Part shown: positions 15,061-32,893 of the stretch, one piece after another | How positions within the stretch are numbered: the first letter of the stretch is position 1 | Layout of the letters: each line of letters opens with the position of its first letter | Origin: a virus | Taxonomy: Duplodnaviria; Caudoviricetes | DNA: 32,893 nucleotides | Reading direction: 5' to 3' (one strand) | IMG/VR virus record: IMGVR_UViG_3300048579_000310 | Span: 1 to 32,893 of that record | Program-made: the position numbers and the translations under genes | Notes under the pieces: generated by a model | What the model was told of the DNA's origin: nothing | Database searches by the model: none | What the model saw: only the letters and a program-made list of their open reading frames with translations

Positions 15061-15731
15061 GCACTACCGCAACCCTGATCCCGCGGGTCCTGCACCAGAT
15101 CTGGCTGGGCAAGGGCGAGATGCCCCTGCACCAGCGGCGCTGGCGTCGCCGCTTCGCCGAGATGAACCCGCACTGGGAGATGCGGCTGTGGACCGACGAC
15201 AACCTGCCGCCGATCCTCAACCGCAACGCTTGGGCGGCGTGCGGCCAAGTCGGCGGCACGCCCGGCTGCGTGATGCGCTCGGACATCCTGCGCCTCGAAC
15301 TCCTGGCCCGCTTTGGCGGCGTCTACCTCGACACCGACGTCAAGCCCATTCGTCCGCTGGACGAGATGTGCCCGCCGGAGGTCCGGGCGTGGGCCGCGTG
15401 CGAGCAACTCGACATCGTCTCCAACGCGGCGATGGGCTTCCCGGCCAACCACCCAGCGATGTGGCACATGGTGGCGATGATCGAAGAGTCGTTTTTCGAG
15501 CGCCGGTACGTTGGCGATCAAGCCGGGCCCGGGCTGCTCGCCCGCGTGGTCACCCAGTACGACGACATCGCGCTCTATCCGCCGGCGTACTTCCACCCGA
15601 CGGTCGGCGAGTCGAAGTGCAATCCGGACGCGAAACAGTTCCTCTTGGGCGCACACCTCTTCGCCGGCACCTGGGTTGAGGCGAACCGGGAGCGGTACCA
15701 GCGGATGTGGCGAGCGAACGACGATGCGTGA
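15057..15731 (+). CDS. Glycosyltransferase family 32 (OCH1/Gly_transf_sug-like)
   Basis: TTG 15057 (TTGA overlap); IPRVLHQIWLG...RLWTD...SDILRLELLARFGGVYLDTD...QAGPGLL...HLFAGTW. Confidence 0.88.
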   Translation: MSTTATLIPRVLHQIWLGKGEMPLHQRRWRRRFAEMNPHWEMRLWTDDNLPPILNRNAWAACGQVGGTPGCVMRSDILRLELLARFGGVYLDTDVKPIRPLDEMCPPEVRAWAACEQLDIVSNAAMGFPANHPAMWHMVAMIEESFFERRYVGDQAGPGLLARVVTQYDDIALYPPAYFHPTVGESKCNPDAKQFLLGAHLFAGTWVEANRERYQRMWRANDDA

Positions 15732-15788: not shown

Positions 15789-16862
15789 ATGAGCAGCATC
15801 TACCTTGACGAAAGCGGGTTTACGGGCACTGATCTGCTCAGCATCGAGCAGCCGTTCTTTGTCGTTTCCAGCTTGGTACTCGATGACACCACAATCGCCG
15901 CATGGTTTCCCGTGCTCACTCAGGCCACGCAAGCGGCGGAGCCGAAGTTCTCGCAGATGATCAAGTCGCCATGCGGTCGGGCGGGGATCACAGCCTTCTG
16001 CCAGCTTCTCGAGCAGAACCAAGGGAAGATGCGGTTTCAACTGGTTCACAAGCGATACGCCCTGCTCGGGAAGCTCTTGGATTGCGTGGTGGAGCCCATG
16101 TACTACGCGCACGGACAGGACTTTTACTTCGAAGGCCACAACGTTGCATTTCTAAATGCGCTGCACTACGCCTCCGAGCCCCATCCCGAATTGAAGAGCG
16201 CCGTGCTGAGCGCTCTCTTGTCGTTGTGTCGAGAGCCTTCGGTTGAGACTCTGGGACAGCTTGGTGCAAGCGCCTCCGCGTTGTCCGCGGCTTCACCGGA
16301 GCTGAAGGCGCTCTGTGTGCCGATAAAGGACGCCGTTCGTTGGCGTCGTACCGCGGGCGTCGAGGACCTGAATCGAAAGCTCCTGACGCTCCAAGTGACT
16401 GCGGTGGTGTCGCTGGTCCGAGGGTGGAACCAAGAATTGACAGGTTCGCTCATCGTGATCGCTGACCAATCGAAGGAGCTCAACGAGTCCTTAGAGACAC
16501 TGATGGCCTTCGCCAATTCGGATCTTCCAGAGGTGAAAGAGATTGCTGCCGGGCGGGAGATCGGGTTGCCTCTACGCATTCAGGAAGCGAGGCTTGCCGA
16601 TTCGCGCACGACGCGGGGCGTGCAACTTGCCGACGTGGCTGCCGGACTGGTCGCACATGTAGCGGTGGCAATGACCGACCCCGCTCGACGGATCGACGGC
16701 TTCACCGACCAGGTGGTGCAACTGGTCAAGGAGTGGCCCCGGGTGTTCCAGATCGTGCCCGAGTCCAAGTTCACGCCGGAAGCCCTTGGGCGAGTGGGGT
16801 TTGATGGCTCGCGGATTGTGGATGCCAGCACCGAAGCCCTGCGGCGTCCGCGAGCACCATAG
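15789..16862 (+). CDS. DUF3800-family protein (predicted RNase H-like fold)
   Basis: N-terminal IYLDESGFTG, central IADQ and C-terminal GVQLADVAAG are the DUF3800 signature motifs. Confidence 0.8.
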   Translation: MSSIYLDESGFTGTDLLSIEQPFFVVSSLVLDDTTIAAWFPVLTQATQAAEPKFSQMIKSPCGRAGITAFCQLLEQNQGKMRFQLVHKRYALLGKLLDCVVEPMYYAHGQDFYFEGHNVAFLNALHYASEPHPELKSAVLSALLSLCREPSVETLGQLGASASALSAASPELKALCVPIKDAVRWRRTAGVEDLNRKLLTLQVTAVVSLVRGWNQELTGSLIVIADQSKELNESLETLMAFANSDLPEVKEIAAGREIGLPLRIQEARLADSRTTRGVQLADVAAGLVAHVAVAMTDPARRIDGFTDQVVQLVKEWPRVFQIVPESKFTPEALGRVGFDGSRIVDASTEALRRPRAP

Positions 16863-16967: not shown

Positions 16968-18188
16968 GTGACTGCCGCGACGGACACATCTCGACCTTCA
17001 CCTGCGGGCCACCGAGAGCGGCTTCGTCAGCGGTTCGCCGCGTCCGCCGCGTTGCTTAGTGACGAACAGAAACTGGAGCTCCTGCTCACCTTTGGCATCC
17101 CGCGTCGCGATGTCGCTCCGATCGCGAGCGAGCTCATGCGGCGGTTTGGCACCATTGCCCGCGTCCTCGCCGCTCGCGAACAGGAATTGCTCGAAGTCGA
17201 TGGGATCGGAGACCATGCCGCCACACTGCTCCGACTTGTCGGAGTGCTTCAGGAGCACAAGGAACCGCCGCCGGCCGAGAAGCCGCGTCCGATCACGCTT
17301 CCAGCTGAGTTGTTCGTCGACATTGCGTCGAAGACAACCCCAATTCCCACGCCCGCGCGTTCCGCCAGAGAGATTCTTGAACCTGCGAAGCCCGTCGCAG
17401 CCGTCGCACCCGAGCCCAGACTTCTGGTGCGCCGCGCTCGGACGGGACTCTTCAGCGCGTGTGTGTTTCGGGACGCGCTCAAGCTCATCCACAAGATCCC
17501 TCTCGGTAGCACGATCGACCAGGCCCGAGAGTTCCTGCAGAATCAAGGCTTGCACTACAGCGGCGCGACGACGCGGCATCGTTACGCGAGTTACATCATC
17601 AACCGCGTGTTTCCGTTGGGGGTGGTCGATCAGGCGTTGTGCCGCTTCGTTCGTGCATTCCAAGGCTCCCAGTCCCATAGGGACGTTTTGGCCTACAGGC
17701 ACATGTGCGCTGAGCCGTTAACGCGGGAGGTCGTACTCGATCTCATCCTGCCAGCGTTGGGACGGCAGGTTGTGCCTCGCACCCACCTGCGCAAGTACCT
17801 TTCACGCAAGTTCCCAAGTGCCAAACCGAACAGCATCAACAGCTGCGGCAAAGCAATCGTTGAGATTCTCGGTGAGTCGCAGTTGGTCGGAGCAACTCGT
17901 ACGGAGCTTTCCGTTCACTCACGGCAAGTCGATGTGAACGCCTTCTGCTTCCTGGTCCACAGCGAATTCCCCGAGGTCGGGATGCACCGCCTCGACGACC
18001 TCGAAGGCTCCGCGGCATTCAAGGCGATGCTCTGGACTAAAGAAGACATGAAGACGTGCCTCTATGAACTCCGCAACCGGGGGCTGATCACCAAGGTGTC
18101 AGAAGTGGACTCGCTCCGTCAATTCACGACACGGTACACGCTGGCTGAGGTCGTCGAACGCATTGAAGCCGGCGGAGGTACCCGATGA
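16968..18188 (+). CDS. RadC N-terminal (HhH) domain fused to a putative BrxA-like DNA-binding domain
   Basis: GHRERLRQRF...LELLLTFGIPRRDVAPIASELMRRFG...ELLEVDGIG is the RadC N-terminus. A Pro-rich linker follows and there is no JAB HxHPSG motif. BrxA-like call rests on first position in the BREX operon and helical character. Confidence 0.7.
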   Translation: MTAATDTSRPSPAGHRERLRQRFAASAALLSDEQKLELLLTFGIPRRDVAPIASELMRRFGTIARVLAAREQELLEVDGIGDHAATLLRLVGVLQEHKEPPPAEKPRPITLPAELFVDIASKTTPIPTPARSAREILEPAKPVAAVAPEPRLLVRRARTGLFSACVFRDALKLIHKIPLGSTIDQAREFLQNQGLHYSGATTRHRYASYIINRVFPLGVVDQALCRFVRAFQGSQSHRDVLAYRHMCAEPLTREVVLDLILPALGRQVVPRTHLRKYLSRKFPSAKPNSINSCGKAIVEILGESQLVGATRTELSVHSRQVDVNAFCFLVHSEFPEVGMHRLDDLEGSAAFKAMLWTKEDMKTCLYELRNRGLITKVSEVDSLRQFTTRYTLAEVVERIEAGGGTR

Positions 18189-18706
18189 AGACTGCTGACA
18201 TCATCGACACGCTCCGCTCCAAGCTCACGGTGCCCACTGGCCGTCACCTCTATGGCATCATGGGCACCTACACGCAGCTGAAGGATTTCTCCAAGCAACT
18301 GTCGCAGGCGCGAACGACGGACGGCTCAAAGTTCCCAGCGCCGATCAACGTCAACAAGGGCATCCTTGACACGATTCCCGATGCCGAGTTCAAGGAGCTC
18401 GTGCAGAACGAGGCCAAACGCCCCGAACCGACTCGGGCGCACGTCCGCATCGCTTTCGAGGCCTTCCTGCGAGACCATCTCCAGAAGAAGGACCTGATCG
18501 TCCTGGCGAACCTGGAGATGATCTTCGCCTACCACCTTGAGCTCAACTTGCTGAGAACGATGGCCGCGGATGACGATCGCGTCGTGCTGCTCCTTCCGGG
18601 CAAGCGAGACGGTGGGAAAGTGGTGATGTTCCCCGATTGGCCCGACGGCAGTTACCAGCTCCCTACCAATTTGATTGCCGACAACCACCTGTGGGAGCTG
18701 CGCTAA
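18185..18706 (+). CDS. BrxB/BrxF-like small degenerate P-loop protein
   Basis: 173 aa; LIVLANLEMIF...RVVLLLPG resembles BrxF/BrxB C-terminal motifs. No intact Walker A. Second gene of the operon. Confidence 0.6.
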   Translation: MKTADIIDTLRSKLTVPTGRHLYGIMGTYTQLKDFSKQLSQARTTDGSKFPAPINVNKGILDTIPDAEFKELVQNEAKRPEPTRAHVRIAFEAFLRDHLQKKDLIVLANLEMIFAYHLELNLLRTMAADDDRVVLLLPGKRDGGKVVMFPDWPDGSYQLPTNLIADNHLWELR

Positions 18707-21240
18707 TGGGCAAGTCCACATCAAGAGAGAAGACGCTGTTCTCTGGCCAACCCAAGGCGGGAGCCGCTGTCTCGTACGCCGGGGACAAGCCCAACCCGGA
18801 GTTGCGTGCATTCGTCGAGCGACACATGGCCGAACGGCCCTACGACCCATCAATGGACGATTACGAAGTGCCAGCCTTCGACAAGACCATTGAAGCGACG
18901 AAGGCAACTGCGATCTACAACATGCACACGTATTGGTCCAAGAAGCCGCATGACGCGATTCGCCAGTACATTCGCCACTACACGAAGTCGGGAGATCTGG
19001 TGCTGGACCCCTTCTGCGGTTCGGGCGGAACGGCGTTGGCTGCGCTCATGGAAGGTCGGAAGGTGATTGCCATCGACCGTTCGCCTGCCGCCACATTCAT
19101 CACCAAGAACTACTGCACTCCCGTGGACCCGGACGAACTCCGCGAGGCGTTCGAGCAGGTAAAGTCGAAGGTACAAGACGAGATCGACTGGCTGTACGAG
19201 ACCCGGTGCGACAACTGCGGCGGGAAGGCGACGACGGCTTACACCGTTTACTCGCAGGTATTTCAATGCCCACGATGCCTCGAAAAAGTGACGCTGTTCG
19301 ACTGCGTGGAAGTGGATGGCGAAACTGCAGCAGGCAAACCAAAGAAGCTAAACGTCTGCCCGTACTGCCACACGAATGGGCACGAGGAGGTCATCCGCAG
19401 CCAGAGCAAGAAGTACGGTTCAGTTCCGGTGATGGTGGTCTACAACTGCTTAAGTGGATGTCGCCCGAGCAAAAGGCAGCGGCACCACCTGGACGAGGAT
19501 GCGGCCAAGCGCCGAAACTTCAGACTTAACGAAACTGAGAAGCTCAAAGTGCTTCAATCGGAGCCAATACCTCACTGGTATCCGCGTGGCTTCGATATGA
19601 CCACGTTCGACCGGTATCAGCGGGATGCCTTGTTCTACTACGAAGTCAAAGAGGTGGCAGACCTCTTCACGCGCCGCAATCTTCGTGCACTTGCTGCTCT
19701 GCGCAGTGCCATCGCCGACTTTCCTCGGCCCGATCTCCGTGATGCAATGATGTTCTCATTCAATGCCTGCATACTTGCGGTATCGAGAATGGTACGTGCC
19801 AGCAACACTGCCACCATGCCTGGCACATACTACATGCCACAGGTATCAAAAGAAGTTCGTGTACTCGATTCGTTCGAAAGCAAATTGAATGTGGCGATTA
19901 AGGGCTTTGGGTCGATTAGCACGACACTCAGTCAGCGGGACGGATTGATCTCGACCCAGTCCGCGACGGACCTGGAGGCTATCCATAGCAACTCGGTGGA
20001 TTACGTCTTTACTGATCCTCCGTACTCCGGAACGATTCAGTATGGAGAATTGAACTACGTTTGGGAGGCGTGGCTCAACGCGGACGTCGGTTGGTTAGCA
20101 GACGAGATGACGGTGAGTCACGTTCGCGACAAGGCGGAGAGTGATTGGGCAGCTGCGATGTCGCGGTTTGCGCGTGAGTGCTTTCGGGTACTCAAGCCCG
20201 GCCGGTGGGTGAGCCTCTGCTATCACGACACTGCAGAGGGAACATGGGGGTTGCTGCAAGACATCATGACCGAAGCCGGCTTCGTCCCGGATGCTGGCGC
20301 ATCAGCGTTGTTTATTGACGCTGTGCAAAAAACTTTCAATCAGCGGACTGCCGATAAGGTCACGAAAAGAGATCTCGTTGTCAACTTCCGCAAGCCGCGA
20401 CCAGGCGAGGCGGGCGGGTTGCGGGTCGTGATCCCCGAGGGTGCCGACGCGAAGACGTTTGCCGATCTCGCCCGCCAGATCATCCGCGATTACTTACAGG
20501 CCAACCCTGCGAGCACCAAGGACCGCGTGTTTGACGAGCTCGTCAGCCGCATGGTTCGTGCCGGCCAGATGCAGGCCCACAACTTCGAGGAACTACTCCG
20601 CGAGGTGGCTGACGAGACCAAGGACGCGGGCGGCGCGAGCCGCTGGTACCTGAAGGAGTCGGAGGAAGGCCAGATCGACGCGGCCGAAGCGGCCAAGGAA
20701 GACTCGGCCTCCAAGGCGATGGAGAAGTTCATCACCAAGACGCTGGAGAAGAACTACGCCGAGGGCGTGCACTACAGCGACCTGTTCGAGCACTACCTGT
20801 ACGCCGTGAAGGACAAGCCGCGGCGGTCGCTCGCCGACTGGCTGCCGGACTACTTCTTCAAGACCGAAGATGGGACCTGGCGTCTCCCGGTGGACGACGA
20901 TGAACGGGATCTCAAGGCGACGGCGCGTGCCTCGGGTGAGAACCGGCGGATCAAGCGGTACGCTGCGATGCTGCAGGCGGGCGTGGCGGTGCCCAAGGAG
21001 CGGGTACCGAGCGCGGCGACGCTGGCGGAGTGGATTCGGCACGCCAAGCGGTCGGGCCTGTACGAGGCGGGCAAGCTGCTTTACGAGCGTGGCGGTCTGG
21101 ACGCCTCGAAGCTGAGTGAAGAGCAGCAGGTCGAGGTGGAAGAGGACTACCAGGTCTGCGTGCGGGCGCTCCAACGCGCCGCGGGCGGAGAAGTCGCCAC
21201 CACGGGCAAGAAGAAGGGTCGCAAGAAGAAGCCCGACTGA
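18706..21240 (+). CDS. DNA amino-methyltransferase 1 (N6_N4_Mtase, PglXI-like)
   Basis: ATG 18706 (TAATG overlap); ~844 aa. HTYWSKKP, motif I VLDPFCGSG, CxxC pairs (CDNC, CPRC, CPYC), motif [17 protein letters not shown]. Confidence 0.92.
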   Translation: MGKSTSREKTLFSGQPKAGAAVSYAGDKPNPELRAFVERHMAERPYDPSMDDYEVPAFDKTIEATKATAIYNMHTYWSKKPHDAIRQYIRHYTKSGDLVLDPFCGSGGTALAALMEGRKVIAIDRSPAATFITKNYCTPVDPDELREAFEQVKSKVQDEIDWLYETRCDNCGGKATTAYTVYSQVFQCPRCLEKVTLFDCVEVDGETAAGKPKKLNVCPYCHTNGHEEVIRSQSKKYGSVPVMVVYNCLSGCRPSKRQRHHLDEDAAKRRNFRLNETEKLKVLQSEPIPHWYPRGFDMTTFDRYQRDALFYYEVKEVADLFTRRNLRALAALRSAIADFPRPDLRDAMMFSFNACILAVSRMVRASNTATMPGTYYMPQVSKEVRVLDSFESKLNVAIKGFGSISTTLSQRDGLISTQSATDLEAIHSNSVDYVFTDPPYSGTIQYGELNYVWEAWLNADVGWLADEMTVSHVRDKAESDWAAAMSRFARECFRVLKPGRWVSLCYHDTAEGTWGLLQDIMTEAGFVPDAGASALFIDAVQKTFNQRTADKVTKRDLVVNFRKPRPGEAGGLRVVIPEGADAKTFADLARQIIRDYLQANPASTKDRVFDELVSRMVRAGQMQAHNFEELLREVADETKDAGGASRWYLKESEEGQIDAAEAAKEDSASKAMEKFITKTLEKNYAEGVHYSDLFEHYLYAVKDKPRRSLADWLPDYFFKTEDGTWRLPVDDDERDLKATARASGENRRIKRYAAMLQAGVAVPKERVPSAATLAEWIRHAKRSGLYEAGKLLYERGGLDASKLSEEQQVEVEEDYQVCVRALQRAAGGEVATTGKKKGRKKKPD
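20497..21190 (+). repeat. Direct repeat copy 1 (~0.7 kb, 3' end of methyltransferase 1)
   Basis: Near-identical to 31075-31768 (offset 10578). By eye, 1-7 mismatches per 60 nt in five sampled lines, mostly synonymous. Confidence 0.92.
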
Positions 21241-21241
21241 T

Positions 21242-22051
21242 ATGAGCAAGTATCTGCCCATCACGGAGCACCTCCGGTCTCTGCCGCTCTCACAGAGCTC
21301 GGTATCGCTCGCCTTCGCCTCGCTGGAGAAGGTGCTCGGGGCTGATCTGCCGAGCACGGCCCGGGTCGACAGGCCGTGGTGGGCGAACACCCTCCAGAGC
21401 AACCACGCCAAGGCATGGCTGTCGGTGGGATGGAAGGTTCATCAGGTTGATTTGAAGGGGCAAACGGTCACGTTCACCCGCGAATCGGCGGCTGTGCCGA
21501 AGGTATCGCGAGGATCAGATGTCTACCGGAGGGTGACAGAGTTCTTCGAACAGCTTCCCGGCGAGCAGACTCAGGTGGCACTCCTGTTCCAGGAGATCGA
21601 GGCCGTCATGGGCCGGCCTTTGCCGAAGACCGCGTTCCGCGATCGAACGTGGTGGGCCAACGCGAAAGAGTACTCGCCGAGCCGGGATTGGCTCGCCGCC
21701 GGCTGGAAGCTTGAGTCCGTGTTCCTGCCCGTTTCGATCGCCGTGTTCAGGCGCAGGCAAGCCGCGACGCTTGAGTCCGTGCGTGCCTGCGTGAAGAGGT
21801 TTCTGGGTGATGGCAAGGGAGGCTCTGTGCCAGACCCACGCCGAGCAGCTGAGTGGATCAGTCTGTGCCGGCGCGTTGGGTGGTACTTCGAGGGCACCGT
21901 GTTGTTTGAGCGCGGCGGCATCTCTTTCAGTTCGCTCGGCGATGAAGCGATCGTGAGCGTGGAAGAGGATTACGGGATCTGCCGACGAGAGTTGGATCGG
22001 TACAAGGCTCTGCCGCAGGCGCATGCTGCCTCGAGAACGGGAAGGTCATGA
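21242..22051 (+). CDS. Tandem DUF7662-like domain protein with a C-terminal module shared with the methyltransferases
   Basis: ATG 21242; 269 aa. Two repeats of Y...L.F..IE..LG..LP.TA...WWAN...WL..GWK, then the AEWI...ERGG...VEEDY..C module. Confidence 0.8.
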   Translation: MSKYLPITEHLRSLPLSQSSVSLAFASLEKVLGADLPSTARVDRPWWANTLQSNHAKAWLSVGWKVHQVDLKGQTVTFTRESAAVPKVSRGSDVYRRVTEFFEQLPGEQTQVALLFQEIEAVMGRPLPKTAFRDRTWWANAKEYSPSRDWLAAGWKLESVFLPVSIAVFRRRQAATLESVRACVKRFLGDGKGGSVPDPRRAAEWISLCRRVGWYFEGTVLFERGGISFSSLGDEAIVSVEEDYGICRRELDRYKALPQAHAASRTGRS

Positions 22052-25000
22052 TGGCAAAGAACGACGAACTGTTTATGGCACGCAAGAGCCTCGGCGAGAT
22101 CTGCACTACGCCAGAGAAGATCATCTCTGTGTACTCGCTGGAGAAGCACGTCTGGTCGGACTCCAACGACCTCAAGTCTCGGCGCGCCCGCAAGCCGGAG
22201 CTTCAGACGATCGACGAGTTTCAGATCGATCCGGTCCGTCCGTTCTTGAACGACATCCTGCGCAACATCTCCGCCCCGTATGACGCGGCCCGGAAAGAGA
22301 ACCCGGTTGGCCAGGGGTACTGGATCCAGGCGGAGTTCGGCAGCGGTAAGTCGCACTTGCTGTGCTGTCTGTCCGCGCTCGCCCTTGGCAGCAAAGACGC
22401 CTGGGAACTGGTTCGCAAAAAAGAGGAGAAGTCAGGGAAGGGCAAGCGTGAGAGCCTGTACCGCTTCTGGGAAGACGGCCTCGAAGCGAAGAACACCAAG
22501 GGCAAGAAGGGCGTGTTGGTCGTCGTCAAGACCCTGGTCGGCGTGGGCAGCGGCACGGTCGGCGTTGCCGGCGACAAAGGCCGCGCGCTTAGTGAGTACA
22601 TCCTGGATGCGATCAAGGAGCAGCTGCAGGCGGAGACCGGGAAGAACCTGTCGCTGTATCCGGTCGAGCGTCTGGCAGATCGGTTTGTCAACGACGATCT
22701 CGACCGCTATCGCAACGACCTCAAGAAGTTCCTGAAGAGCCCGCAGTTCTTCCATGAGGACGAGTTTGAAGAAGTTGACCAGTTCATCAAGGACATCCAG
22801 GCGAACAAGTCGCCGGAGTACAAGCGGAGCTGCGGTAACAAGCTTTGGCGGTTCTACACCGAGTTCCTGAAGGTCCAACCGCACATCCCCGCCGAACCCG
22901 AGGAGATCCTGAAGCACGCGGTCGAGACCGTGCTCGCGGAGGGGTATGCAGGCATTCTGCTCGTCCTCGACGAAGTGTCGCTGTTCATGAAGAACCGCGA
23001 CGAGAGCCAGCGCACAGACGACGAGAAGACATTGGTGGTGCTGGCCAACCGTCTGGCCAAGGTCATGAATCTCCCCGTCTGGCTCGTGTGCTCGGCGCAG
23101 CAGGCCATCGAAAGCAAGCTCGGCGTCAAGAACATCATCGCAGACGATCGGCTCAAGCTGGTCAAGCTCCTCGAGAACGATGCAGACTACTACCAGATCG
23201 TGCTCAGCCGAGTCCGGCAGATCACCGATCCGTCGGCGATCGCGCCGTATTTCATGCACTACAAGAAGGGCTTCTCGTGGCCGCAGAGCATCGGGCAGAG
23301 TGACTTCACCCACTTTTTCCCGTTCCACAAGCCGGCGCTTGAAGTGCTGCGCTCAATCACGCCGCTGCTGACAGAGGCTCGATCGGCCATCCACTTCATG
23401 CACCAGACGCTGAAGCGTCAGATCAAGCAGGAAGGCAAAGAGCTCATCCGGTTGTGGGAGCTCTTTGACGAGACGGTGCAGTATGAGGAGGACCCTAGCG
23501 GTACTCACGCGGGCTTGGTCGCCATCAAGACCAAGATGGACACCGACTACAAGGCCTATGAAGCGAGCCGGCGGCAGATCGACGCGATGATCAGAGGGCC
23601 CCTGAAGGTCCACAGAGACAAGGCGATCAAGGTCGTTCAGACCCTTTTCCTCTACCACATCGGCCGCACCAGGCTTCAGGGGCTCACGCCGGACGAGATC
23701 GCAAACTCGGTGCTCATCGAGAGGAATCCGGACTCGAACGTTGACGAGAACGTGCAGCACTACGAGACGATCGCAGAGTCGCTGAAGAAGGAACTGCGTC
23801 AGATCGCACAGAACTTCGACGAGGACAAGAAGCCTCGGTATCGCTTTGATCCAGTGTTCAGCGGGCTTGACCCACGGAGCGAGTTCAGCAAAGCCAAGAA
23901 CGAGGCCGAGTCGAACGAGCAGATGCGCAAAGAGGCCTGGGACCACCTGCTTGCGCTCGACGAGTGGCCGGTCAAGACCCGCCAGATGACGATGGACCTC
24001 TCCAATGGCATTCGGAGCATCTTCCGCGATGTCGCGCCGTCCGTCGGTTCGTGGAAGTCTGAGCCCCTGATGGGCGGCGGGGAGTTTGACCTCGAAGTCA
24101 CCTGGCTGGGCAGGCAGGTGACGGGCTTTGTGTCCATGCGCGATCTGGCCAAGACCGTGGCCGACAATCTTCGCCTCCCCCCGATCGAATCGGATCGCAC
24201 CGACCGCGACTTCGCGCTATTCGTGAGCTCCCGACCAGCGGAGGGCAAGCACATCGTCTCGCTGCTCGCACGGTACAAAGACCCACGCGCGATCTTCTGG
24301 ACTCCCGACACCCTGCGGACGGAGGAAACGGATCGTCTGATCGAGTTTGCGGCGTACCGGAAGCTCGTGAACGACTGGAGCGGTAAAGACACAGAGGATG
24401 CCGTCACCATCATCAACTGGGTGGCCAACGCACTGCGGACGGATCTGGGGCGGATCTACCAGATTGTTCCAGACAGCTATCGGCGCGGTCGGATGGACGC
24501 TCAGAACAACAGCGAGATGGAGTTTCAGGTGGCCGGGGAGCTCCCCGCCATCATTTCGCCACTCGTCGAGAAGGTGCTGTCCACGGCGTACGAGTCCCGC
24601 GAGATCCGCTTCGATGGGCCGTATGTCTTCAAGAAAGAAGAGGGCATCAAGGTCATCAACGGGATCGTCAAGCGCGGCGAGATCCCCAAGGGTGAAAAGC
24701 CAAACCAGAATGTCAGCGCCGCCCAGAACTTCGGGTTCGGCCTTCGCATCATGAAGAAGTCGGCTGAGCGCAAGCTGGACATCTCCGGCAATGCGTTCGT
24801 TGACGCCATTTGGTCATTCATCGAGGAGAAGCTGCCTGATGACGGCCAGCAGATGAAGGCCGACACGCTCTACAAGAACTTCATGGGGGTTGGCGGCCCC
24901 AAGGACTTCGGCCTGACGAGGCGGATGATCCAGATCTACCTGCTCTGCCTTGCCCGCGAGGGCAAGCTGAGGATCGGCCTGAGCCCCAAGTCGGGCCTCT

Positions 25001-26394
25001 CTACCGACCAGCTCGACTACTCCAACCTCGCCGAGGTTGAGTTCAGCGCCAAGGTCATCGATTCGTTCGTGGACGTGCAGAGACTCAAGCGTCCCGAGAA
25101 CTGGGAAGTGCTCCGTCCGTACGCAGAGAAGCTGCTTCAGGATGAACTCCCCTCTACCCATGACGACTCAGTCATCGCGGGATATCGCAAGAAGCTGAAG
25201 GAGTGCTTCACGTCCGGGCGTGAGCTCGCAGAGAAGCTGACGCGAGAGGCTGCCGATCTCTTCGCCAGCATCAAGATGGAGAACCCCTACAGCACGGAGT
25301 TGAAACAGGCAGACACGCTGTTCCATACCGATCTGGCTTCTGGCGACGACATCGCCCTGATCCTCCACGGTCTCAAGGAGGCATACGGCTACAAGGCATA
25401 CGACGAAGAGCGGTCCACGCCGTCAGAAGTGGATGACCTTGCCAACAGGCTCAAGAACTACCGAGACATCGAGCAGTTCCTGGCATATCAGAGTGAGATC
25501 CGAGCGGCAGTCGCATACTGCAGCCACTCGCTCCCGGACATCCCGGAACTGAAGGCCGCCAGAGCGGCGCAGCAGGTCGTCGCAACAAAGCTGAAGGACA
25601 TCCGCCAATGGATCGATTCGCCCGTCCGACTGAAGACGGAACTCATCGGCCACACTCCTGCCACGGCGGGCGAGTCCGGAACACTCGGCAAGCTGATCAC
25701 CGAGTACTCAACGGCCTACACGGTGCTGCACGACCAGACCATCGAGCAGATCGGTGATGCCTCGACCGCAATCCAGGACTTGGTCGGTAACGACCGGTTT
25801 GTGTTGCTCGAGCGTTGCGAGGGCATCTCGGCATTGAAGCCCGGGGTTTCCGACAGCCTTCGTGGAGCAGCTCAAACCGCGATCGACGGTCTCTTTGGGT
25901 GCGCCGATCCATCGCAGGCATCCATCGAACGTGAACTCCGGCGTCATCCGCATCACGTGTGTGGACTGTCTTTTGAGAACGCATCGGGGCACGTACAGGC
26001 CGCGACCGATGCCCACGCAGCCATACGGCAGCGCGTCAACGAAGCAATCCGCTCGAAGTACTCCATCTTCCTCGCGGCACCAGTGCGGGAACTACTGCAG
26101 CAGGGCAAGAAGGAGGCTGTGATCTCCGAGCTGCTTGGTTGTGACACGGTCGAGGCTGTCGAGGCCGTGCTGGCCAAGCACGTTGTGCCCAAGGGCTCGG
26201 CGGTTGAAGTCATCAACCGCTACCTGAAGACGATTGTCGTCACCAAGGTCCGGGTCAGCGACTTCAAACCCTCGACGACGACGGTCGAGCCAGACGGAGT
26301 CGCAGCAGTTGCCGAGGAGTTCCGTGGGTTCTTGGCCGCGAACTTCGGCAAGTCGAAGGGCAAAGACGTCATTGAGGTGCTTCAGCTCGAGTAG
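22048..26394 (+). CDS. brxC: BREX P-loop ATPase BrxC/PglY-like (DUF6079-like)
   Basis: 1448 aa; Walker A YWIQAEFGSGKSH, Walker B ILLVLDE, FPFH motif, long helical C-terminus; lies upstream of pglZ. Confidence 0.82.
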   Translation: MMAKNDELFMARKSLGEICTTPEKIISVYSLEKHVWSDSNDLKSRRARKPELQTIDEFQIDPVRPFLNDILRNISAPYDAARKENPVGQGYWIQAEFGSGKSHLLCCLSALALGSKDAWELVRKKEEKSGKGKRESLYRFWEDGLEAKNTKGKKGVLVVVKTLVGVGSGTVGVAGDKGRALSEYILDAIKEQLQAETGKNLSLYPVERLADRFVNDDLDRYRNDLKKFLKSPQFFHEDEFEEVDQFIKDIQANKSPEYKRSCGNKLWRFYTEFLKVQPHIPAEPEEILKHAVETVLAEGYAGILLVLDEVSLFMKNRDESQRTDDEKTLVVLANRLAKVMNLPVWLVCSAQQAIESKLGVKNIIADDRLKLVKLLENDADYYQIVLSRVRQITDPSAIAPYFMHYKKGFSWPQSIGQSDFTHFFPFHKPALEVLRSITPLLTEARSAIHFMHQTLKRQIKQEGKELIRLWELFDETVQYEEDPSGTHAGLVAIKTKMDTDYKAYEASRRQIDAMIRGPLKVHRDKAIKVVQTLFLYHIGRTRLQGLTPDEIANSVLIERNPDSNVDENVQHYETIAESLKKELRQIAQNFDEDKKPRYRFDPVFSGLDPRSEFSKAKNEAESNEQMRKEAWDHLLALDEWPVKTRQMTMDLSNGIRSIFRDVAPSVGSWKSEPLMGGGEFDLEVTWLGRQVTGFVSMRDLAKTVADNLRLPPIESDRTDRDFALFVSSRPAEGKHIVSLLARYKDPRAIFWTPDTLRTEETDRLIEFAAYRKLVNDWSGKDTEDAVTIINWVANALRTDLGRIYQIVPDSYRRGRMDAQNNSEMEFQVAGELPAIISPLVEKVLSTAYESREIRFDGPYVFKKEEGIKVINGIVKRGEIPKGEKPNQNVSAAQNFGFGLRIMKKSAERKLDISGNAFVDAIWSFIEEKLPDDGQQMKADTLYKNFMGVGGPKDFGLTRRMIQIYLLCLAREGKLRIGLSPKSGLSTDQLDYSNLAEVEFSAKVIDSFVDVQRLKRPENWEVLRPYAEKLLQDELPSTHDDSVIAGYRKKLKECFTSGRELAEKLTREAADLFASIKMENPYSTELKQADTLFHTDLASGDDIALILHGLKEAYGYKAYDEERSTPSEVDDLANRLKNYRDIEQFLAYQSEIRAAVAYCSHSLPDIPELKAARAAQQVVATKLKDIRQWIDSPVRLKTELIGHTPATAGESGTLGKLITEYSTAYTVLHDQTIEQIGDASTAIQDLVGNDRFVLLERCEGISALKPGVSDSLRGAAQTAIDGLFGCADPSQASIERELRRHPHHVCGLSFENASGHVQAATDAHAAIRQRVNEAIRSKYSIFLAAPVRELLQQGKKEAVISELLGCDTVEAVEAVLAKHVVPKGSAVEVINRYLKTIVVTKVRVSDFKPSTTTVEPDGVAAVAEEFRGFLAANFGKSKGKDVIEVLQLE

Positions 26395-26402
26395 GAACCG
26401 CC

Positions 26403-29321
26403 ATGCTGCAAGACTGGGTCATCTCGAAGCTGGAACCTCGGAAGTCCGCCGCACGGCTGCTCCTGCGGGATCCCTCGCGCCTGCTCGCTGATCGGGAGAA
26501 CGCGATCCATGAGTTTGCCGCAAAGAACAGCTTCACCGTCATCGTCGCCTCCACCAACTTGGTGCTCCGCGATCTTTACGAGACCGCGCGGGCGGATAAG
26601 CAGATCGAGAAGCTGCTGTTGATCGACCGCTGCCCTGTTCGGCGGCGTTCCGGAGTCGGCGAGCAGTCGCCTGCCCCGCTCTATCCAGATCTTGTTGCGG
26701 AGGTCGGTGAACAAGGAATCGTGGACCTCGATCTGCGTGAATACCTGATCGCGGAGACCGGCGACCCTGCCTGGCCGCTTAAGATCAAGGACGCCACGTA
26801 CGCCCGGCTGATTGCCCGGAACCTTCAGGGTGTCATACGCGCTCACAAGAATCTCCGGGCTGCGGATCCCACGCGGTTTACTGATCACGACCTTGCCCAG
26901 ATCGTCGCCTACGCCGCGATGGGCGTGCCCGACGCGGCCTTTAAGCGCAACGACCCGGAAAGCCTGTGGCGCATCGGCCTGATCGCTAGCACCAGGTTTG
27001 GCGAGCTGGAGGCGGTCGCTCCGGACATCGTGGAGACGGTGCGGACCGAGCTCACCAGCGCACCCGCTCCATATTGCTGGCTAGCCCGCCATGATCCGGA
27101 GACCGTTCTCCGCGCCTTCTACATGGCAGTAATCCTCGAGCAGCACACGCCGGAGTGGAAGTTGCTCCTGCCGAACATTGATCCCACGCTCCAGCCATAC
27201 AAAGACATGGACCCCAAAGTCCTCCGCTCCGCTCCTGCCGAGCTTGTGGGCCTGAGCGAGGAGCGGGCCCACTCAGACCTTGCTCGGGCCGAAGAGGCAC
27301 TGAGCCGGGATGGGCTGCAGCTCGTCTTCATCGATCGGCTTGGAGGCGACAAGCCGGACGGCTTTACGGGCATTCTGGAGCGTGAGCGGTACTCAACGGT
27401 CCTGCGGGAACTGGCGCTCTTCCTCGCTTTGCGAGATCAACTGTCATCATTCCCGGCATCCGAGCATCACGGGCGCATTCGAAAGCTGGTGCTGGATGCG
27501 ACGCCCACCCAGGCCTCCGATTCGCCCTTCGTCGAGCGTCGTCCTTCAGCATCCTGGGCCGGCCTCAAGGAGGCCTACGACCTTGCAGGTCAGTTCGCCG
27601 TGCTCCGCAAGGAGCTTGCGAGCTTCGTGAAGGCGCTGGGGGTCCGGAAAACCGAGCACCTGGACTACAAGTACTTCTGGGAGAACTGGAACACAAAGCG
27701 ACTCAACCGCGTTGAGTACTTCGTTTCCGCGATCGACCGAGCGGTGTCTACGAGCGCGCTCCTGCCCCGCCCCGAGGACACGCTGCCCGCAGTCTTTGCC
27801 AACGCCCTTCAGGATCTACGGCAGCGCGTCCTAGCGCTAACCGCAGAGCTCAACAAGCAGCTTGACGAAGTGAACCGCCGCTTCCAGGAGATGGTCGCTT
27901 CACAGTACAAGTCGTGGATCCACGGCGAGACGAACGTCCACCTCACCAGCCAGTTCATCCCGCGGGTTCTCAAACCGAACTGGGACCCTCAGACGGAAGA
28001 TGCCGTCGTGCTCGTCTTCGACGGCATGCGGTACGACATCTTCGATGAACTCCTGCGGCCGGCGATCGCCGACCGGCTCGAAGTAGTCAAGGAGTACCAC
28101 GGCTCCTCAGTCCTCCCGAGTGAAACGGAAGTGTCTCGCTGGGCGATCGCCGCGGGCCAACCGCCCGCCGCATGGTGGGATGACGCTCGCAAGCCGGAGA
28201 ACTTCCACCTCAAGACCGCCCTCGCCCGCGAGTTCGCGTACACCGGTGACGCTGAGTCGTACGCCCCGCCGGGGAGCGGCACAGGTGAAACCGTGAGGTA
28301 CAAGGCGGGTCGGCTGAACTACATCATCTTCGAGTTCTGCGACAAGGAGCTCCACAAGATCACCAGCAAGACGCTGGCTGACGGTCGTCAGGTGCCGTCG
28401 CGGCCGTTGGCGCTCATCTACAAGCAGTTGCTCAAAGACCTCATCGACAACGAAGTCATGGCCGTCATCCGCCAGCTTCCGGCCGGCATGAAGGTGTTCA
28501 TCACGGCCGACCACGGGTTCGGTCGAGTACACCGCGATCGGCTTTCGATCGAGCAGGCATGGCTCAACCAACCAGAGGATTGTCTGCATCTCAACGCTTG
28601 GCTCCGCAAGACGCTAAAGGACTGCGGCGCACCGGACAAGGTCCGGCAGAACGTAATTGAGTTCCCCGTCGACGACCTTCGCATGCCCAAGACCGAAGCC
28701 GCGTATGACAAACAGACGCGGAACACGTACAACAAGACCTACGCGTCCATCGTCTTCCCGAAGGTCGGCTACGCCCTCGCCAGGCCAGGCCGGAACTTCA
28801 ACCCGGACGCCTTCACGCACGGCGGCATCTCGATCCAGGAGTTGATGATCCCGATGGTGGTCATGCGGGTAAAGCGGCCCGATGAGGGGCCGCTCAGCAT
28901 CGAGCAGATCGTCGGCCCCGCCGAGTTCCTCGAAGCCGAAGAGGTCACATTCCGACTGAGTCTTGCCCGTGGTTCGGCCGCAGCCTTGTTTGACGATGTG
29001 CGGGTCGACATCGACCCCACGGTGTCGACGACCAGCGGCGACCCGCAGGACCTGCAGCGGCAGGTTCACTATGTCTCCGGGTCGGGCGTCGACATCGCCA
29101 TGCCGTACCGCTTTGGTCAGCAGGACGCTACGGACGAAGAACGGAAGGCCGGGCAGGCGAAGCGGACGCTCACGGTGGCCGTCTCGTACCGAGACGGTGC
29201 TCGGCAGATCAGGCGAAGCCGAGTTCTGTCATTTGTCGTCAAGTTAAACGCTGAGCAGGTTGTCCGGCGTGTTGGAAACCTGGGGTCTATCTTGGGGCTG
29301 ATGCCGAAGGGAATGAGGTAA
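26403..29321 (+). CDS. pglZ: PglZ alkaline-phosphatase-superfamily protein
   Basis: VVLVFDGMRYD, SVLPSETEVS, VFITADHGF and FTHGGISIQELMIP are canonical PglZ motifs. Confidence 0.93.
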   Translation: MLQDWVISKLEPRKSAARLLLRDPSRLLADRENAIHEFAAKNSFTVIVASTNLVLRDLYETARADKQIEKLLLIDRCPVRRRSGVGEQSPAPLYPDLVAEVGEQGIVDLDLREYLIAETGDPAWPLKIKDATYARLIARNLQGVIRAHKNLRAADPTRFTDHDLAQIVAYAAMGVPDAAFKRNDPESLWRIGLIASTRFGELEAVAPDIVETVRTELTSAPAPYCWLARHDPETVLRAFYMAVILEQHTPEWKLLLPNIDPTLQPYKDMDPKVLRSAPAELVGLSEERAHSDLARAEEALSRDGLQLVFIDRLGGDKPDGFTGILERERYSTVLRELALFLALRDQLSSFPASEHHGRIRKLVLDATPTQASDSPFVERRPSASWAGLKEAYDLAGQFAVLRKELASFVKALGVRKTEHLDYKYFWENWNTKRLNRVEYFVSAIDRAVSTSALLPRPEDTLPAVFANALQDLRQRVLALTAELNKQLDEVNRRFQEMVASQYKSWIHGETNVHLTSQFIPRVLKPNWDPQTEDAVVLVFDGMRYDIFDELLRPAIADRLEVVKEYHGSSVLPSETEVSRWAIAAGQPPAAWWDDARKPENFHLKTALAREFAYTGDAESYAPPGSGTGETVRYKAGRLNYIIFEFCDKELHKITSKTLADGRQVPSRPLALIYKQLLKDLIDNEVMAVIRQLPAGMKVFITADHGFGRVHRDRLSIEQAWLNQPEDCLHLNAWLRKTLKDCGAPDKVRQNVIEFPVDDLRMPKTEAAYDKQTRNTYNKTYASIVFPKVGYALARPGRNFNPDAFTHGGISIQELMIPMVVMRVKRPDEGPLSIEQIVGPAEFLEAEEVTFRLSLARGSAAALFDDVRVDIDPTVSTTSGDPQDLQRQVHYVSGSGVDIAMPYRFGQQDATDEERKAGQAKRTLTVAVSYRDGARQIRRSRVLSFVVKLNAEQVVRRVGNLGSILGLMPKGMR

Positions 29322-29331
29322 GCAGATCGCC

Positions 29332-31827
29332 ATGAGCACTTCTCAGTTCAATTCGTCTGCTCTATTCGGCTCCGCTGAATCAACGGTGCCGCCAGATGCT
29401 TACTTCGCAGATGCGCCCAACCCCTGCATCAGGGCATTCGTGGATCAGCATCAAGCGAGGACGAAGGGCGGCGCAGTCAGCTACAACGTTCCCGCATTCG
29501 CGGAGACCATTACTACGGACAAGGACAATGCCGTTTACGGCATTCATGGCTACTGGTCGAAGAAGCCGTACGACGCCATTCGTCAGTACATCAGACACTA
29601 CACCCAGCCAGGCGATCTGGTGCTCGATCCCTTCAGCGGCTCAGGTACCACTGCTATCGCCGCTGCGGCAGAGGGACGGGACTGCATTGCCGTCGACCTG
29701 AGCGGTGCAGCGACATTCATCGCACGCCATGTTTCCTATCCGACGCCCGGCAACCGAGTACTTGAGCTTGTCGAGCAACTCGCCAGTCGGGTGCGTAGCG
29801 AAATGGCGGCCCTGTACACAACGGTCTGTGATCGATGCAACGGGCCTGCTGAGATCGCCTTCACCGTGTGGTCCAACACGTACCAGTGCTTGAAGTGTAT
29901 GGAAGTGTTTCCAATCTACGACGCTTCGGAGGCACGTCTGTGTCCTCACTGTGGGGATCCACTTGCCGCGAGGTCGCCATACGTTGGGACCGTGCCGGTG
30001 GAGACCGGCTACGACTGCCTTGGTTCGTGTAAACCTCGTCGATCCCGACGGTCGCATCGTGACCACGACTCAAACGCGCAACGTGCGTTTGCTGAGAAAG
30101 ACGTCGCTCTGATTCAGCGTATTGCGAGCGAACCAATTCGCGATTGGTTTCCAACAGATCCATTCTGCAAGGAGTGGGTGTCCTATCGCCCGAATCTTGG
30201 CGAAGCGAAGACCATCGCTGGGTTCTTCACGAAACGAAACCTGCGAGCGTGCGCAAGAATCATGGCGGGAATTGGCGAACTTGAGACAGCTGGCGCAGCC
30301 GATGCGGACGTGCTGCGGTTCTGTTTTACGGCCGCCTTGCTGAACTTTTCACGGAAAGCACAGCATCTCGAGGAAGGCGGCGGGTACATCCCCGGCAACT
30401 ACAACTTTCCCCCGCTGACGAAGGAACGCCACGTCTGGCGCTCATTTGAATCGGTAGCGACGAAGGTGGCGAAGGGGATGGACGCGATCGCCAACATCAG
30501 AAGTGATCGATCGCGAGTACTTCTGTCAACCGGCTCCGCTTTCGAGATGACCGATGTACCGACCAGCAGCATCGACTTCATTTTTACCGATCCGCCCTAC
30601 TCGAACAAAGTACCGTTCGGTGAGTTCAATTTCTTGTACGAGTCGTGGCTGAAGTTCCGCTTGTCGTGGAAGTCGCCAGAGGAGTTGATCGAGAACAACA
30701 AGCTCGGAAAGCCGCCGGCTGAGTGGGAGCGGCTCATGACCCGGGCCGCCAGAGAGATGTTCCGGGTACTGAAGCCAGGCCGTTGGGTCTCTCTGTGCTA
30801 TCACGACTCCGCCGAGGGGTCGTGGGAAATGCTCCAAGACTCAATGGCAGCCGCCGGATTCGTTCCCGACCAGTTGGCGAAGGTCATCTCGATCGAAGTC
30901 CGGAACAAGTCATTCAAGCAACGGACGACTGCTAAGGTGCAGAAGCGGGACCTCGTTGTAAATTTTCGCAAACCTGCCGTTCATGAATTTGGCGACGCAC
31001 AAGTTGTGATTCCAGAGAGTGCCGATGCAAGGACATTTCGCGACCTTGCCCGCGAGGTGATCCGTGAGTATTTGCAGGCCAACCCTGCGAGCACCAGAGA
31101 CCGTGTGTTTGACGAGCTCGTCAGCCGCATGGTGCGTGCCGGTCAGATGCAGGCTCACAACTTCGATGAGCTGCTCCGCGAGGTTGCCGACGAGACCAAG
31201 GACGCAGGCGGCGCGGGCCGCTGGTACCTCAAGGAGTCCGAGGAAGGCCAGATCGACGCGGCCGAAGCGGCCAAGGAAGACTCGGCCTCCAAGGCGATGG
31301 AGAAGTTCATCGCCAAGACGCTGGACAAGAACTACGCCGAGGGCGTGCACTACAGCGACCTGTTCGAGCACTACCTGTACGCGGTGAAGGACAAGCCGCG
31401 GCGGTCGCTGGCAGACTGGCTGCCGGACTACTTCTTCAAGACCGAGGATGGGACCTGGCGTCTGCCCGTGGACGACGAGGAACGGGAGCTCAAGGCGACG
31501 GCGCGTGCGTCGGGCGAGAACCGGCGGATCAAGCGGTATGCCGCGATGCTGCAGGCGGGCGTGGCGGTGCCCAAGGAGCGGGTGCCGAGCGCGGCGACGC
31601 TGGCGGAGTGGATCCGGCACGCCAAGCGGTCGGGCCTATACGAGGCGGGCAAGCTGCTCTACGAGCGTGGCGGCCTGGACGCCTCGAAGCTGAGCGAAGA
31701 GCAGCAGGTTGAGGTGGAAGAAGACTACCAAGTCTGCGTGCGGGCGCTCCAGCGGGCCGCCGGCGGCGAGGCCACTGCCGCACCCAAGAAGCGCGGGCGC
31801 AAGAAGAAAACGGAGACCGGTGAATGA
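29332..31827 (+). CDS. DNA amino-methyltransferase 2 (paralogue of 18706..21240)
   Basis: 831 aa; [44 protein letters not shown]; C-terminus nearly identical to methyltransferase 1. Confidence 0.92.
31075..31768 (+). repeat. Direct repeat copy 2 (~0.7 kb, 3' end of methyltransferase 2)
   Basis: Matches 20497-21190. Shadow ORFs in the track are duplicated at the same 10578 offset (20850 vs 31428, 20870 vs 31448). Confidence 0.92.
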
Positions 31828-32893
31828 ACACGAAGCTCAAAGAGATCTTCAAAGGCAAGGTCGTCAACAAAGCGCTCACGCTCAACACCGGTGTTGACGA
31901 GTTTCCGCGGTACGTGCTGGAGTATTTGATCGACAACTACTGCGCCGAAGAGACCTTCAAGGAGGACATGCAGAAGGTGGTTCGCCGCCTGAAGGAGACC
32001 TTCGTCTACGGTGCCGAGATGGAGCGAGTCAGGCACTTCATTCGCGAGAACCGCACGCACTCGCTGATCGCCAATCTGGAGGCCCGCCTCGTTGAGACGG
32101 AGGACAAGTACTGGGGCACGATCTCGGCGATCAACGAGAACTTCGTCAACATTCCCCAGAGCATCATCAGCCAATATCCAATGCTGCTGGCTGGCGGCAT
32201 GTGGGGAACGATCGAGCTCACGTACGACGAGACCGAGGTTCACAACAAAAAGATCCGGCCCTTCAAGGTGACCGCTTTCACGCCCTTCCAGGTGAGCGTG
32301 ATCAACGTTGATGATTTCATCGAGAAGCGAAGCCAGTTCTCGACCGAAGAGTGGCTGGACATTCTGGTGAACTCCTGCGGCCTCGACCCGGCCCGCATGA
32401 CGCGCCGCGAGAAGCTGTTGTATGTCAGCCGCTGCATCCCGCTGGTGGAGACCAACGTCAACACCGTCGAGCTCGCTCCTCGTGAGACTGGCAAGACGTA
32501 TCTCTACCGGAATATCTCGTACTACGCGCGGGTTCTGTCGGGCGGCAAGGCGTCGCCGGCCCAGCTGTTCATCAACCTCAACACGGGCAAGATTGGCGAG
32601 GTGGGGCTCCGTGATGCCGTGGTCTTCGACGAGATCGCCAACACCGACTTCACGGACCCGAAGTCCTTCGTGAGCATCATGCAGGGGTACATGCAGGATG
32701 CCAAGTTCAGTCGCGGCGGCAAGAAGGAAGTCCTCGCCTTCGGCAGCCTCGTTTTCGTTGGCAACCTCGACGTGCAGGGGAAACTGCCCCACGAGAAGTA
32801 CTTCCACCTGTTCGAGCCCCTCCCCGACTTCCTGCAGGTCATCGCGTTCCTCGATCGCATCCACTCGTACCTCCCGGGCTGGGAGATCCCCAA
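31824..32893 (+). CDS. brxL: BREX Lon-like AAA+ protein BrxL (partial, runs off the window)
   Basis: Not in the ORF track because there is no stop in the window. Translated by hand from ATG 31824 (ATGA overlap): [16 protein letters not shown]...PRYVLEYLI...LLAGGMWG...[12 protein letters not shown]...[10 protein letters not shown]...DAVVFDEIA...[16 protein letters not shown]. Confidence 0.92.

Follow-up and report, generated by a model that had tools for sequence, protein, structure and literature searches.

Bacteriophage exclusion (BREX) systems are divided into types that differ in gene content, and the two types closest to the locus described here are types 3 and 1. Type 3 systems are made up of brxF, brxC, pglXI, brxHII, pglZ and brxA; in the accessible sections of one comparison, the helicase BrxHII is found in 77% of these systems and BrxL is absent, and the target-recognition insert of the methyltransferase BrxXI is placed in its middle region (PMC12839542). 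Type 1 systems are made up of brxA, brxB, brxC, pglX, pglZ and brxL. Their methyltransferase BrxX has been reported, in the available part of the source, to co-purify with BrxC and to methylate only together with BrxB, BrxC and BrxZ (PMC11842806). According to the accessible portions of a further study, type 1 BrxC forms dimers and higher oligomers, mutations in the C-terminus of PglX (work cited there) separate restriction from methylation, and the four-protein BREX complex is too unstable for structure determination (PMC13326643). The window analysed here is the whole 32,893-base stretch of the IMG/VR virus record IMGVR_UViG_3300048579_000310. It carries a BREX operon in which both DNA methyltransferases (MT1 and MT2) and a third protein, encoded by the gene that starts at 21242 and built on two DUF7662 domains, end in the same helical module of ~80 amino acids (aa). 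This is a real, conserved modular feature, so far apparently undescribed, of an unclassified BREX clade. On balance it is probable, judging from comparative genomics, that the module attaches its carrier to the BREX core, with BrxC the likeliest site, and that the 21242 protein would serve alongside the two methyltransferases as an additional DNA sensor without catalytic activity. For the questions of how a methyltransferase engages the BrxC/BrxB/PglZ core and how restriction is triggered, a domain of this size on three unrelated heads (methyltransferase, DUF7662 and, in some genomes, a Ser/Thr kinase) is a candidate interface.

The operon runs on the + strand, to which all gene and module coordinates below refer, from 16968 to the end of the window in the order BrxA-like gene, BrxF-like gene, MT1, 21242 gene, brxC, pglZ, MT2 and the first half of brxL. 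It shares with type 3 BREX a PglXI-type methyltransferase with a Cys4 insert, a BrxF-like gene, BrxC, PglZ and a C-terminal helical domain, but differs in having BrxL and no BrxHII. PglXI is the best PADLOC model for both methyltransferases, which have three CxxC motifs (the Cys4 insert) between FxGxG and DPPY, and no PglX model stands among the best 25 of their 67-68 PADLOC matches. No helicase was found among the operon genes from 16968 to 32893, an operon that may run past the end of the record; complete related operons end in pglZ-(methyltransferase)-brxL. With type 1 BREX the operon shares a similar gene order ending in brxL and a methyltransferase whose activity would depend on the core. 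It differs from type 1 in that the methyltransferase is PglXI-like rather than BrxX-like, may be duplicated or placed on either side of brxC-pglZ, in that accessory genes share the tail of the methyltransferase, and in that the Lon site of BrxL looks intact. The operon thus has the BREX core, a BrxC/PglY protein of the DUF6079 family and PglZ, but fits neither type: it is not type 3 because BrxHII is missing and BrxL present, and not type 1 because its methyltransferases are of the PglXI type. A clade that combines a PglXI-type methyltransferase with BrxL and has no BrxHII apparently matches no published subtype with which it was compared, those in the accessible sections of PMC12839542 among them. 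DUF7662 is absent from the main text of that paper, and in the literature searched (subscription papers largely outside it) neither DUF7662 nor a shared BREX tail was found described; a preliminary description of this DNA knew of no account of such a module.

The three copies of the module lie at 20938..21186 in MT1 (18706..21240, 844 aa; PADLOC PglXI E 6e-98; FxGxG and DPPY motifs, three CxxC), at 21767..22009 in the DUF7662-DUF7662-module protein (21242..22051, 269 aa), where it was placed by alignment and model, and at 31516..31764 in MT2 (29332..31827, 831 aa; PADLOC PglXI E 1e-87), where it was placed by alignment. The preliminary description had reported a gapless match of 58 residues between the end of the 21242 protein (21827-22000) and the ends of MT1 (21004-21177) and MT2 (31582-31755), and this was reproduced: 28 of 58 positions are identical with either methyltransferase, and the 21827-22000 peptide reaches a best local score of 136 against the whole MT1 protein, against a mean of 29.7 (standard deviation 4.3) and a maximum of 53 in 2000 shuffles. 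DNA identity over the 58 codons is 31/35/23 by codon position, and since third positions are the least conserved, conservation of the module acts at the protein level. The 58 residues hold good as a three-helix core (helices 2-4, also the portion common with the kinase fusions described below) but not as the full extent, since the shared domain of the methyltransferase and DUF7662 classes begins one helix earlier (20938, 21767 and 31516) and spans ~80 aa.

The claim that the carriers are unrelated outside the module does not extend to MT1 and MT2. These are 58/58 identical in the core, 57% identical overall, 24-72% identical per 50-residue block over residues 1-600 and 94-100% identical over residues 601-800. 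Rather than two separately tagged subunits, as had been proposed, they are paralogues with different middle regions and a shared C-terminal third, and because this whole third is near-identical their two modules amount to one independent copy. The MT1 and MT2 genes share ~1055 nt at 84% identity (20182-21230 and 30760-31808), 10,578 nt apart and flanking brxC and pglZ, an arrangement that could permit recombination or exchange of recognition regions; two methyltransferases each were also seen at loci L030 and L036.

The 21242 gene belongs to a conserved family. Homologues of its protein number 68, of which 57 have the module and 11 share DUF7662 alone, and among the sources that are named stand Geobacteraceae, Armatimonadota and Thermodesulfovibrionia, with one protein from Bathyarchaeota. 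A quick tree built from 128 modules (83 columns) places the 83 DUF7662-type rows, including P0044, a DUF7662 protein, in one group with a Shimodaira-Hasegawa-like approximate likelihood ratio (SH-aLRT) support of 98, and six kinase-type modules group at SH-aLRT 100; little else is resolved. Full-length homologues show equal conservation of the module (47%) and of the two DUF7662 domains (46% and 49%), and in genome and metagenome loci the next BREX gene is brxC for 14/14 DUF7662-module genes, which come from 13 contigs, L008 and L011 being one. A one-off recent fusion or a decaying remnant, the outcome that the preliminary description had named as damaging to its proposal, is ruled out by the 57 module-bearing homologues, their single clade and the constant brxC context. 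At one locus (L004:67-2693) an insertion-sequence-like pair of open reading frames (ORFs) splits a DUF7662-module gene just ahead of the module, and a 77-aa module ORF remains upstream of brxC.

Beyond this family, a profile search returned 771 proteins among 8000 scored candidates, of which 120 were inspected, and an exhaustive search at 50% clustering found 250 clusters. The 150 of these 250 that were seen comprise 49 methyltransferases, 32 DUF7662 proteins, 51 short ORFs or fragments and 18 others; three of the last are kinases by Pfam and one is a likely kinase tail, and the rest resemble broken methyltransferase ends by eye. Kinase-module fusions form 5 clusters among 274 candidates; the proteins are 373-377 aa long, with a single Pkinase domain that keeps the VAIK, HxD and DFG motifs. 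Like PglW of type 2 BREX, Mad6 of MADS and PD-T4-6, which are among their PADLOC matches, they place a kinase domain in a BREX-like operon. PglW, however, is a NERD-pseudokinase-kinase protein of 1400-1600 aa, whereas the kinase-module proteins have ~375 aa, one kinase domain and the module of the methyltransferase at the end. DUF7662-module proteins have one to seven DUF7662 copies and sometimes two RAMA domains, two HARE-HTH domains or one Mrr_N domain. A possible EVE/PUA-like head on P0221 was set aside as a by-eye impression without Pfam support.

Genomic context ties these carriers to one kind of operon. The module was found in 85 of the 90 loci L001-L090, and a BREX core gene lies in the fetched DNA of 73 of the 85; the other 12 are methyltransferase ends or fragments, mostly by contig edges, two of them (L046 and L050) having no BREX gene within several kilobases downstream. 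All 14 DUF7662-module genes and both kinase-module genes seen in context (L015:770-1891 and L034:9188-10321) stand inside BREX operons of this clade, and at L015 the methyltransferase, kinase and DUF7662 carriers are consecutive in one operon. The expectations of the preliminary description that the module would be confined to BREX-like loci and fused to varied heads, here a methyltransferase, DUF7662 (with or without RAMA, HARE-HTH or Mrr_N) and a Ser/Thr kinase, were thus borne out, the first of them wherever a non-methyltransferase carrier could be viewed in context. A metagenome scan, of which the best 80 of 125 matches were used, under-samples accessory carriers because it is ranked by likeness to the methyltransferase copy. 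The 46 methyltransferase-anchored loci that show the start of brxC reduce to 23 non-redundant groups, and a module-bearing gene lies upstream of brxC in all 23, this being the anchor methyltransferase itself in 20. In the three groups anchored only on a methyltransferase behind pglZ, a DUF7662-module gene occupies the slot upstream of brxC (3/3 vs 4/20 groups, Fisher p 0.02, the upstream view being cut short in two of the three). Wherever a locus shows both brxF and brxC (35/35), a module gene separates them, these loci having been selected for the module.

The pattern of conservation bears on what the module binds. The positions C, G, Y/F, G, L, Y/F, E, L, Y, C and R are kept in all three classes, mean core identity between classes being 42% (methyltransferase-DUF7662), 35% (methyltransferase-kinase) and 31% (DUF7662-kinase). 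Shared positions of this kind would fit a common partner in the core, and would fit a like-with-like interface equally well, in which the methyltransferases dimerise through the module and the DUF7662 and kinase proteins attach to a methyltransferase, tuning its targeting or activity, rather than to BrxC. Such self-association is also consistent with the finding that accessory, non-methyltransferase carriers were seen only in operons of the clade with a module-bearing methyltransferase, and with the finding that BrxC, PglZ, BrxA, BrxF and the N-terminal 356 aa of BrxL (about half of the protein) contain no second copy (profile-profile probability <1%). Class-specific residues, however, adjoin the invariant ones (GLYEQGK in methyltransferases, GWYFEGT in DUF7662 proteins, GFYxQG in kinases) and have stayed distinct over long lineages, and type 1 BrxX, as noted above, co-purifies with BrxC. 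We regard self-association as unlikely, if deserving some weight. A weak BLAST match of the module to BrxC residues 785-823 (E 0.002) was discarded, having gone in profile-profile comparison.

Structure prediction gives the module a definite shape. AlphaFold2 models the MT1 copy as four helices (mean predicted local distance difference test, pLDDT, 95.4), two of them joined by a two-residue turn and the last one long, and models the 21242 protein (pLDDT 85.7) as two alpha/beta domains followed by the same four helices; a variable tail of 0-21 residues follows the module. Its fold neighbours in the top 50 VIA rows are helical-repeat proteins, many of tetratricopeptide repeat (TPR) or pentatricopeptide repeat type, all weak at Z 5.1-6.2, which is too low for a family assignment (FKBP52: Z 6.0, root-mean-square deviation (rmsd) 2.0, 62 aligned residues). 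No Foldseek match was found at E 0.001, and no family in Pfam (TPR included), PADLOC, PDB sequences or the Atlas. The module is likely a helical hairpin bundle, predicted to be TPR-like.

A further possibility is that the module is a helix-turn-helix (HTH)-like domain that corresponds to the third helical domain at the BrxXI C-terminus and adds non-specific affinity for DNA. In the accessible sections of PMC12839542, three C-terminal helical domains of type 3 BrxXI are read as HTH-like DNA binders, a point that favours this possibility and weighs against docking; reuse of such a domain on other proteins was not found in those sections. The last domain of canonical PglXI and that of a haloarchaeal relative stand at the same position as the module. 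The module gives a weak alignment with the haloarchaeal C-terminus (hhalign probability 22%, E 0.001; similar position by eye), and comparison with the C-termini of three PglXI proteins of canonical type 3 systems, taken from annotated plasmids, gave no support by hidden Markov model or hhalign, so far as it goes; the module may be a diverged form of the last BrxXI helical domain. The tight turn and long final helix of the model, its helical-repeat neighbours and a core that is net acidic in two of three classes (about -2 in the methyltransferase and DUF7662 modules, +1.5 in kinase modules) argue otherwise, as does the presence on the carriers of heads already predicted to bind DNA. The titles of the top 50 VIA rows reveal no recognisable HTH protein, though one may be among them. 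A protein interface is preferred mainly because a kinase would gain little from a DNA-binding tail and much from a tag directed at the machine, and the HTH-like possibility is accordingly rated as quite unlikely. The haloarchaeal relative comes from a Halorarius plasmid (L091:11857-21679) whose operon consists of the methyltransferase, BrxA, a small gene, a BrxC-like gene and PglZ, with no brxL annotated nearby; its methyltransferase, which has the weakly similar helical region at its end, lies nearer to this clade than canonical PglXI does.

The heads of the accessory carriers look like readers of DNA. The 21242 protein matches DUF7662 (Pfam PF24698) at 82.4 bits (cut-off 26) in two stretches (E 2e-23), corresponding to domain 1 (21242..21490) and domain 2 (21515..21763) as delimited by homologue alignment and model, and no catalytic domain was detected in it. 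Domain 1 is predicted to be winged-helix-like, its best VIA match being CtsR (Z 5.4, rmsd 2.8, 65 aligned, weak), and the heads are basic (+2.4 and +5.0). Outside BREX, DUF7662 is fused to faint PD-(D/E)XK, GIY-YIG and NERD matches (L005:2897-4192, L007:10276-11106, P0059) at E 0.08-0.12, below the cut-off, and these neighbours hint at a DNA-reading role. RAMA and HARE-HTH are listed as suggested readers of modified DNA in the accessible part of PMC11037411, and with Mrr_N they are candidate modified-DNA readers here. The carriers thus resemble the readers of modification-dependent restriction, in that a DUF7662 domain of predicted winged-helix-like fold occurs with RAMA, HARE-HTH and Mrr_N; unlike the corresponding enzymes, the reader comes without a nuclease of its own and has the shared module at its end instead.

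Accessory carriers copy a methyltransferase surface without the catalytic domain, and might therefore be decoys that absorb an anti-BREX protein by which phages target the tail of the methyltransferase, as the preliminary description had suggested for the DUF7662 subunit. Short ORFs with little but the module do exist (P0242, 6 members, 132 aa), and in type 1 the phage protein Ocr contacts the C-terminal domain of BrxX, according to the available text of PMC11842806. For a decoy, however, there would be no need to recruit reader-type domains or a kinase with intact-looking motifs, to conserve the heads as well as the module or to carry up to seven copies of them, and the modules of these carriers are just ~42% identical to those of the methyltransferases. 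The suggestion loses ground because the heads are conserved and resemble readers of DNA, and it is the most doubtful of the alternatives considered. A mimic encoded by phages was also rejected: in scans reaching close relatives only, the module matched none of 50,697 phage records, its DUF7662-type version matched none of 72,556 plasmid records, the IMG/VR kinase scan gave no locus, and the single contig that IMG/VR pattern scans returned is a full BREX operon. Of the short ORFs, P0242, P0251 and P0237 (132-138 aa) are almost only a diverged module and could be stand-alone regulators or gene-calling fragments.

BrxL offers another possible recipient of the module. The brxL gene (31824..32893) is truncated by the end of the record; the 356 aa seen match the N-terminal half of its full-length counterparts in related loci at 81-96% identity, and brxL is the most conserved gene of the clade. 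One BrxL of a related locus (L013) scores above the cut-offs of PF13337, PF20442, PF05362 and TIGR02688 and is also matched by PADLOC BrxL. In all 18 full-length BrxL proteins of a non-redundant set, the serine of a G[PS]SAG motif is retained and is followed by a lysine at a distance of 43 residues (for example L008:17597-19735 and L086:213-2300), an interval that we take to be the spacing of the Lon dyad. Because of these residues, the module might be a recognition tag for BrxL as a Lon-type protease, with tagged proteins remodelled or degraded so as to switch defence on or off. The absence of BrxL from canonical type 3 systems would agree with this, no module being detectable in the three canonical PglXI proteins. 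A stably folded domain (predicted) followed by a variable tail of up to 21 residues is unlike a typical degron, however, and the protease domain of the window's own BrxL lies outside the record. In the accessible text of the sources, a BrxL-BrxX interaction has been detected in type 1 (PMC11842806), and the Lon domain is inactive in most BrxL variants (PMC12839542). A role as a BrxL tag appears very unlikely.

Docking on the BREX core remains the reading that we favour. The module ends methyltransferases, DUF7662 proteins and a kinase family in one operon type, and its DUF7662 and kinase versions are separate lineages. We propose that the methyltransferase would reach the BrxC/PglZ core through the module; because BrxC is oligomeric it would offer several sites, at which accessory carriers could load alongside or instead of the methyltransferase. 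The winged-helix heads would then read DNA, probably modified, that the methyltransferases do not recognise, and would hand it over to PglZ/BrxL, and a docked kinase would be brought to a core substrate. The genomic association is strong, whilst the binding partner and the DNA target are inferred by us; within the docking proposal BrxC is the probable partner, with BrxL and PglZ/BrxF each much less so. Of the earlier idea of three alternative subunits on one machine, the genomic predictions (BREX context and varied heads) therefore stand, and docking and partner are interpretation. Complex prediction of the window's DUF7662-type module with BrxC residues 535-1448 scored 0.00 twice, and since the controls did not fold this is evidence neither way.

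Several points weigh against docking, besides the HTH-like reading of BrxXI given above. The evidence for this clade is comparative, and the type 1 data come from another methyltransferase, one with a C-terminal domain specific to its type according to the available text of PMC11842806. The DUF7662 subunit is optional, being present in 7 of the 23 non-redundant groups. The fold matches of the module reach Z 6.2 at best, and helical bundles may share a mere arrangement. Kinase modules may not bind the same surface because they are without the first helix and have a net basic core. DNA binding by DUF7662 is predicted from a weak fold match, and for its companions the 6mA preference of RAMA has not been confirmed and HARE-HTH may sense cytosine marks (PMC11037411, accessible part).

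Dockerin-cohesin pairs and F-box adaptors likewise place one small domain on many unrelated heads, a likeness of design for which no homology is claimed. By extension, the clade might be an undescribed BREX subtype built as a plug-in machine, in which a BrxC/PglZ/BrxL engine takes any protein ending in the module, non-catalytic readers of modified DNA (DUF7662, RAMA, HARE-HTH, Mrr_N) widen the range of targets and a docked kinase regulates; this is a tentative proposal, plausible but somewhat short of probable. It would unite restriction-modification and modification-dependent restriction on one effector core. If readers without a methyltransferase did trigger defence through the module, modified phage DNA could come within the reach of BREX as well, and fusing other domains to the module might be a way to retarget the engine. 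The module offers a small soluble handle for locating the interface of the BREX core.

The first gene of the operon, conserved across related loci, is BrxA-like, with an N-terminal RadC-N/HhH region (16968..18188; Pfam UPF0758_N and HHH_2, weak), the BrxA label being taken from its position. It is followed by a small BrxF/BrxB-like P-loop protein (18185..18706; NCBIfam BREX_3_BrxF, NF033453, 22.9 bits, below the cut-off of 50), homologues of which are 60-75% identical at the equivalent position in related loci. The stop codon of the 21242 gene overlaps the start of brxC (22048..26394), which encodes a BrxC/PglY-like ATPase of 1448 aa with Walker A and B motifs (Pfam DUF6079 40.2 bits, cut-off 23; weak PADLOC BrxC), and pglZ (26403..29321, 972 aa) is recognised by Pfam PglZ at 26.3 bits (cut-off 25) and PADLOC PglZ at E 5e-10.

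Upstream, the left part of the window has portal and capsid genes, and the G+C content falls from ~0.67 to ~0.60 at about 16 kb. At this boundary, immediately upstream of the operon, lies a DUF3800 gene (15789-16862) without a BLAST match in related loci, and the phage-like part also holds, at 11459-15731, a methyltransferase-domain gene, an MptE-like gene, a Hint-domain protein and two DXD glycosyltransferase-like ORFs. In related loci, the BrxA-like RadC-N/HhH start is once fused straight to a methyltransferase-type module (L052:1055-1675, P0143), probably a deletion product joining the ends of an operon. At L084:11124-15702 three ORFs stand between the methyltransferase and brxL, two of them BrxD-like ATPases and one helicase-like (by eye). 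Pairs that resemble toxin-antitoxin systems, or that combine an ATPase with a partner, are frequent in the slots next to the methyltransferase (L025:10354-12299, L043:10437-12342, L032:2116-2803, L037:3229-5054); one has an AbiEi match and the others were judged by eye.

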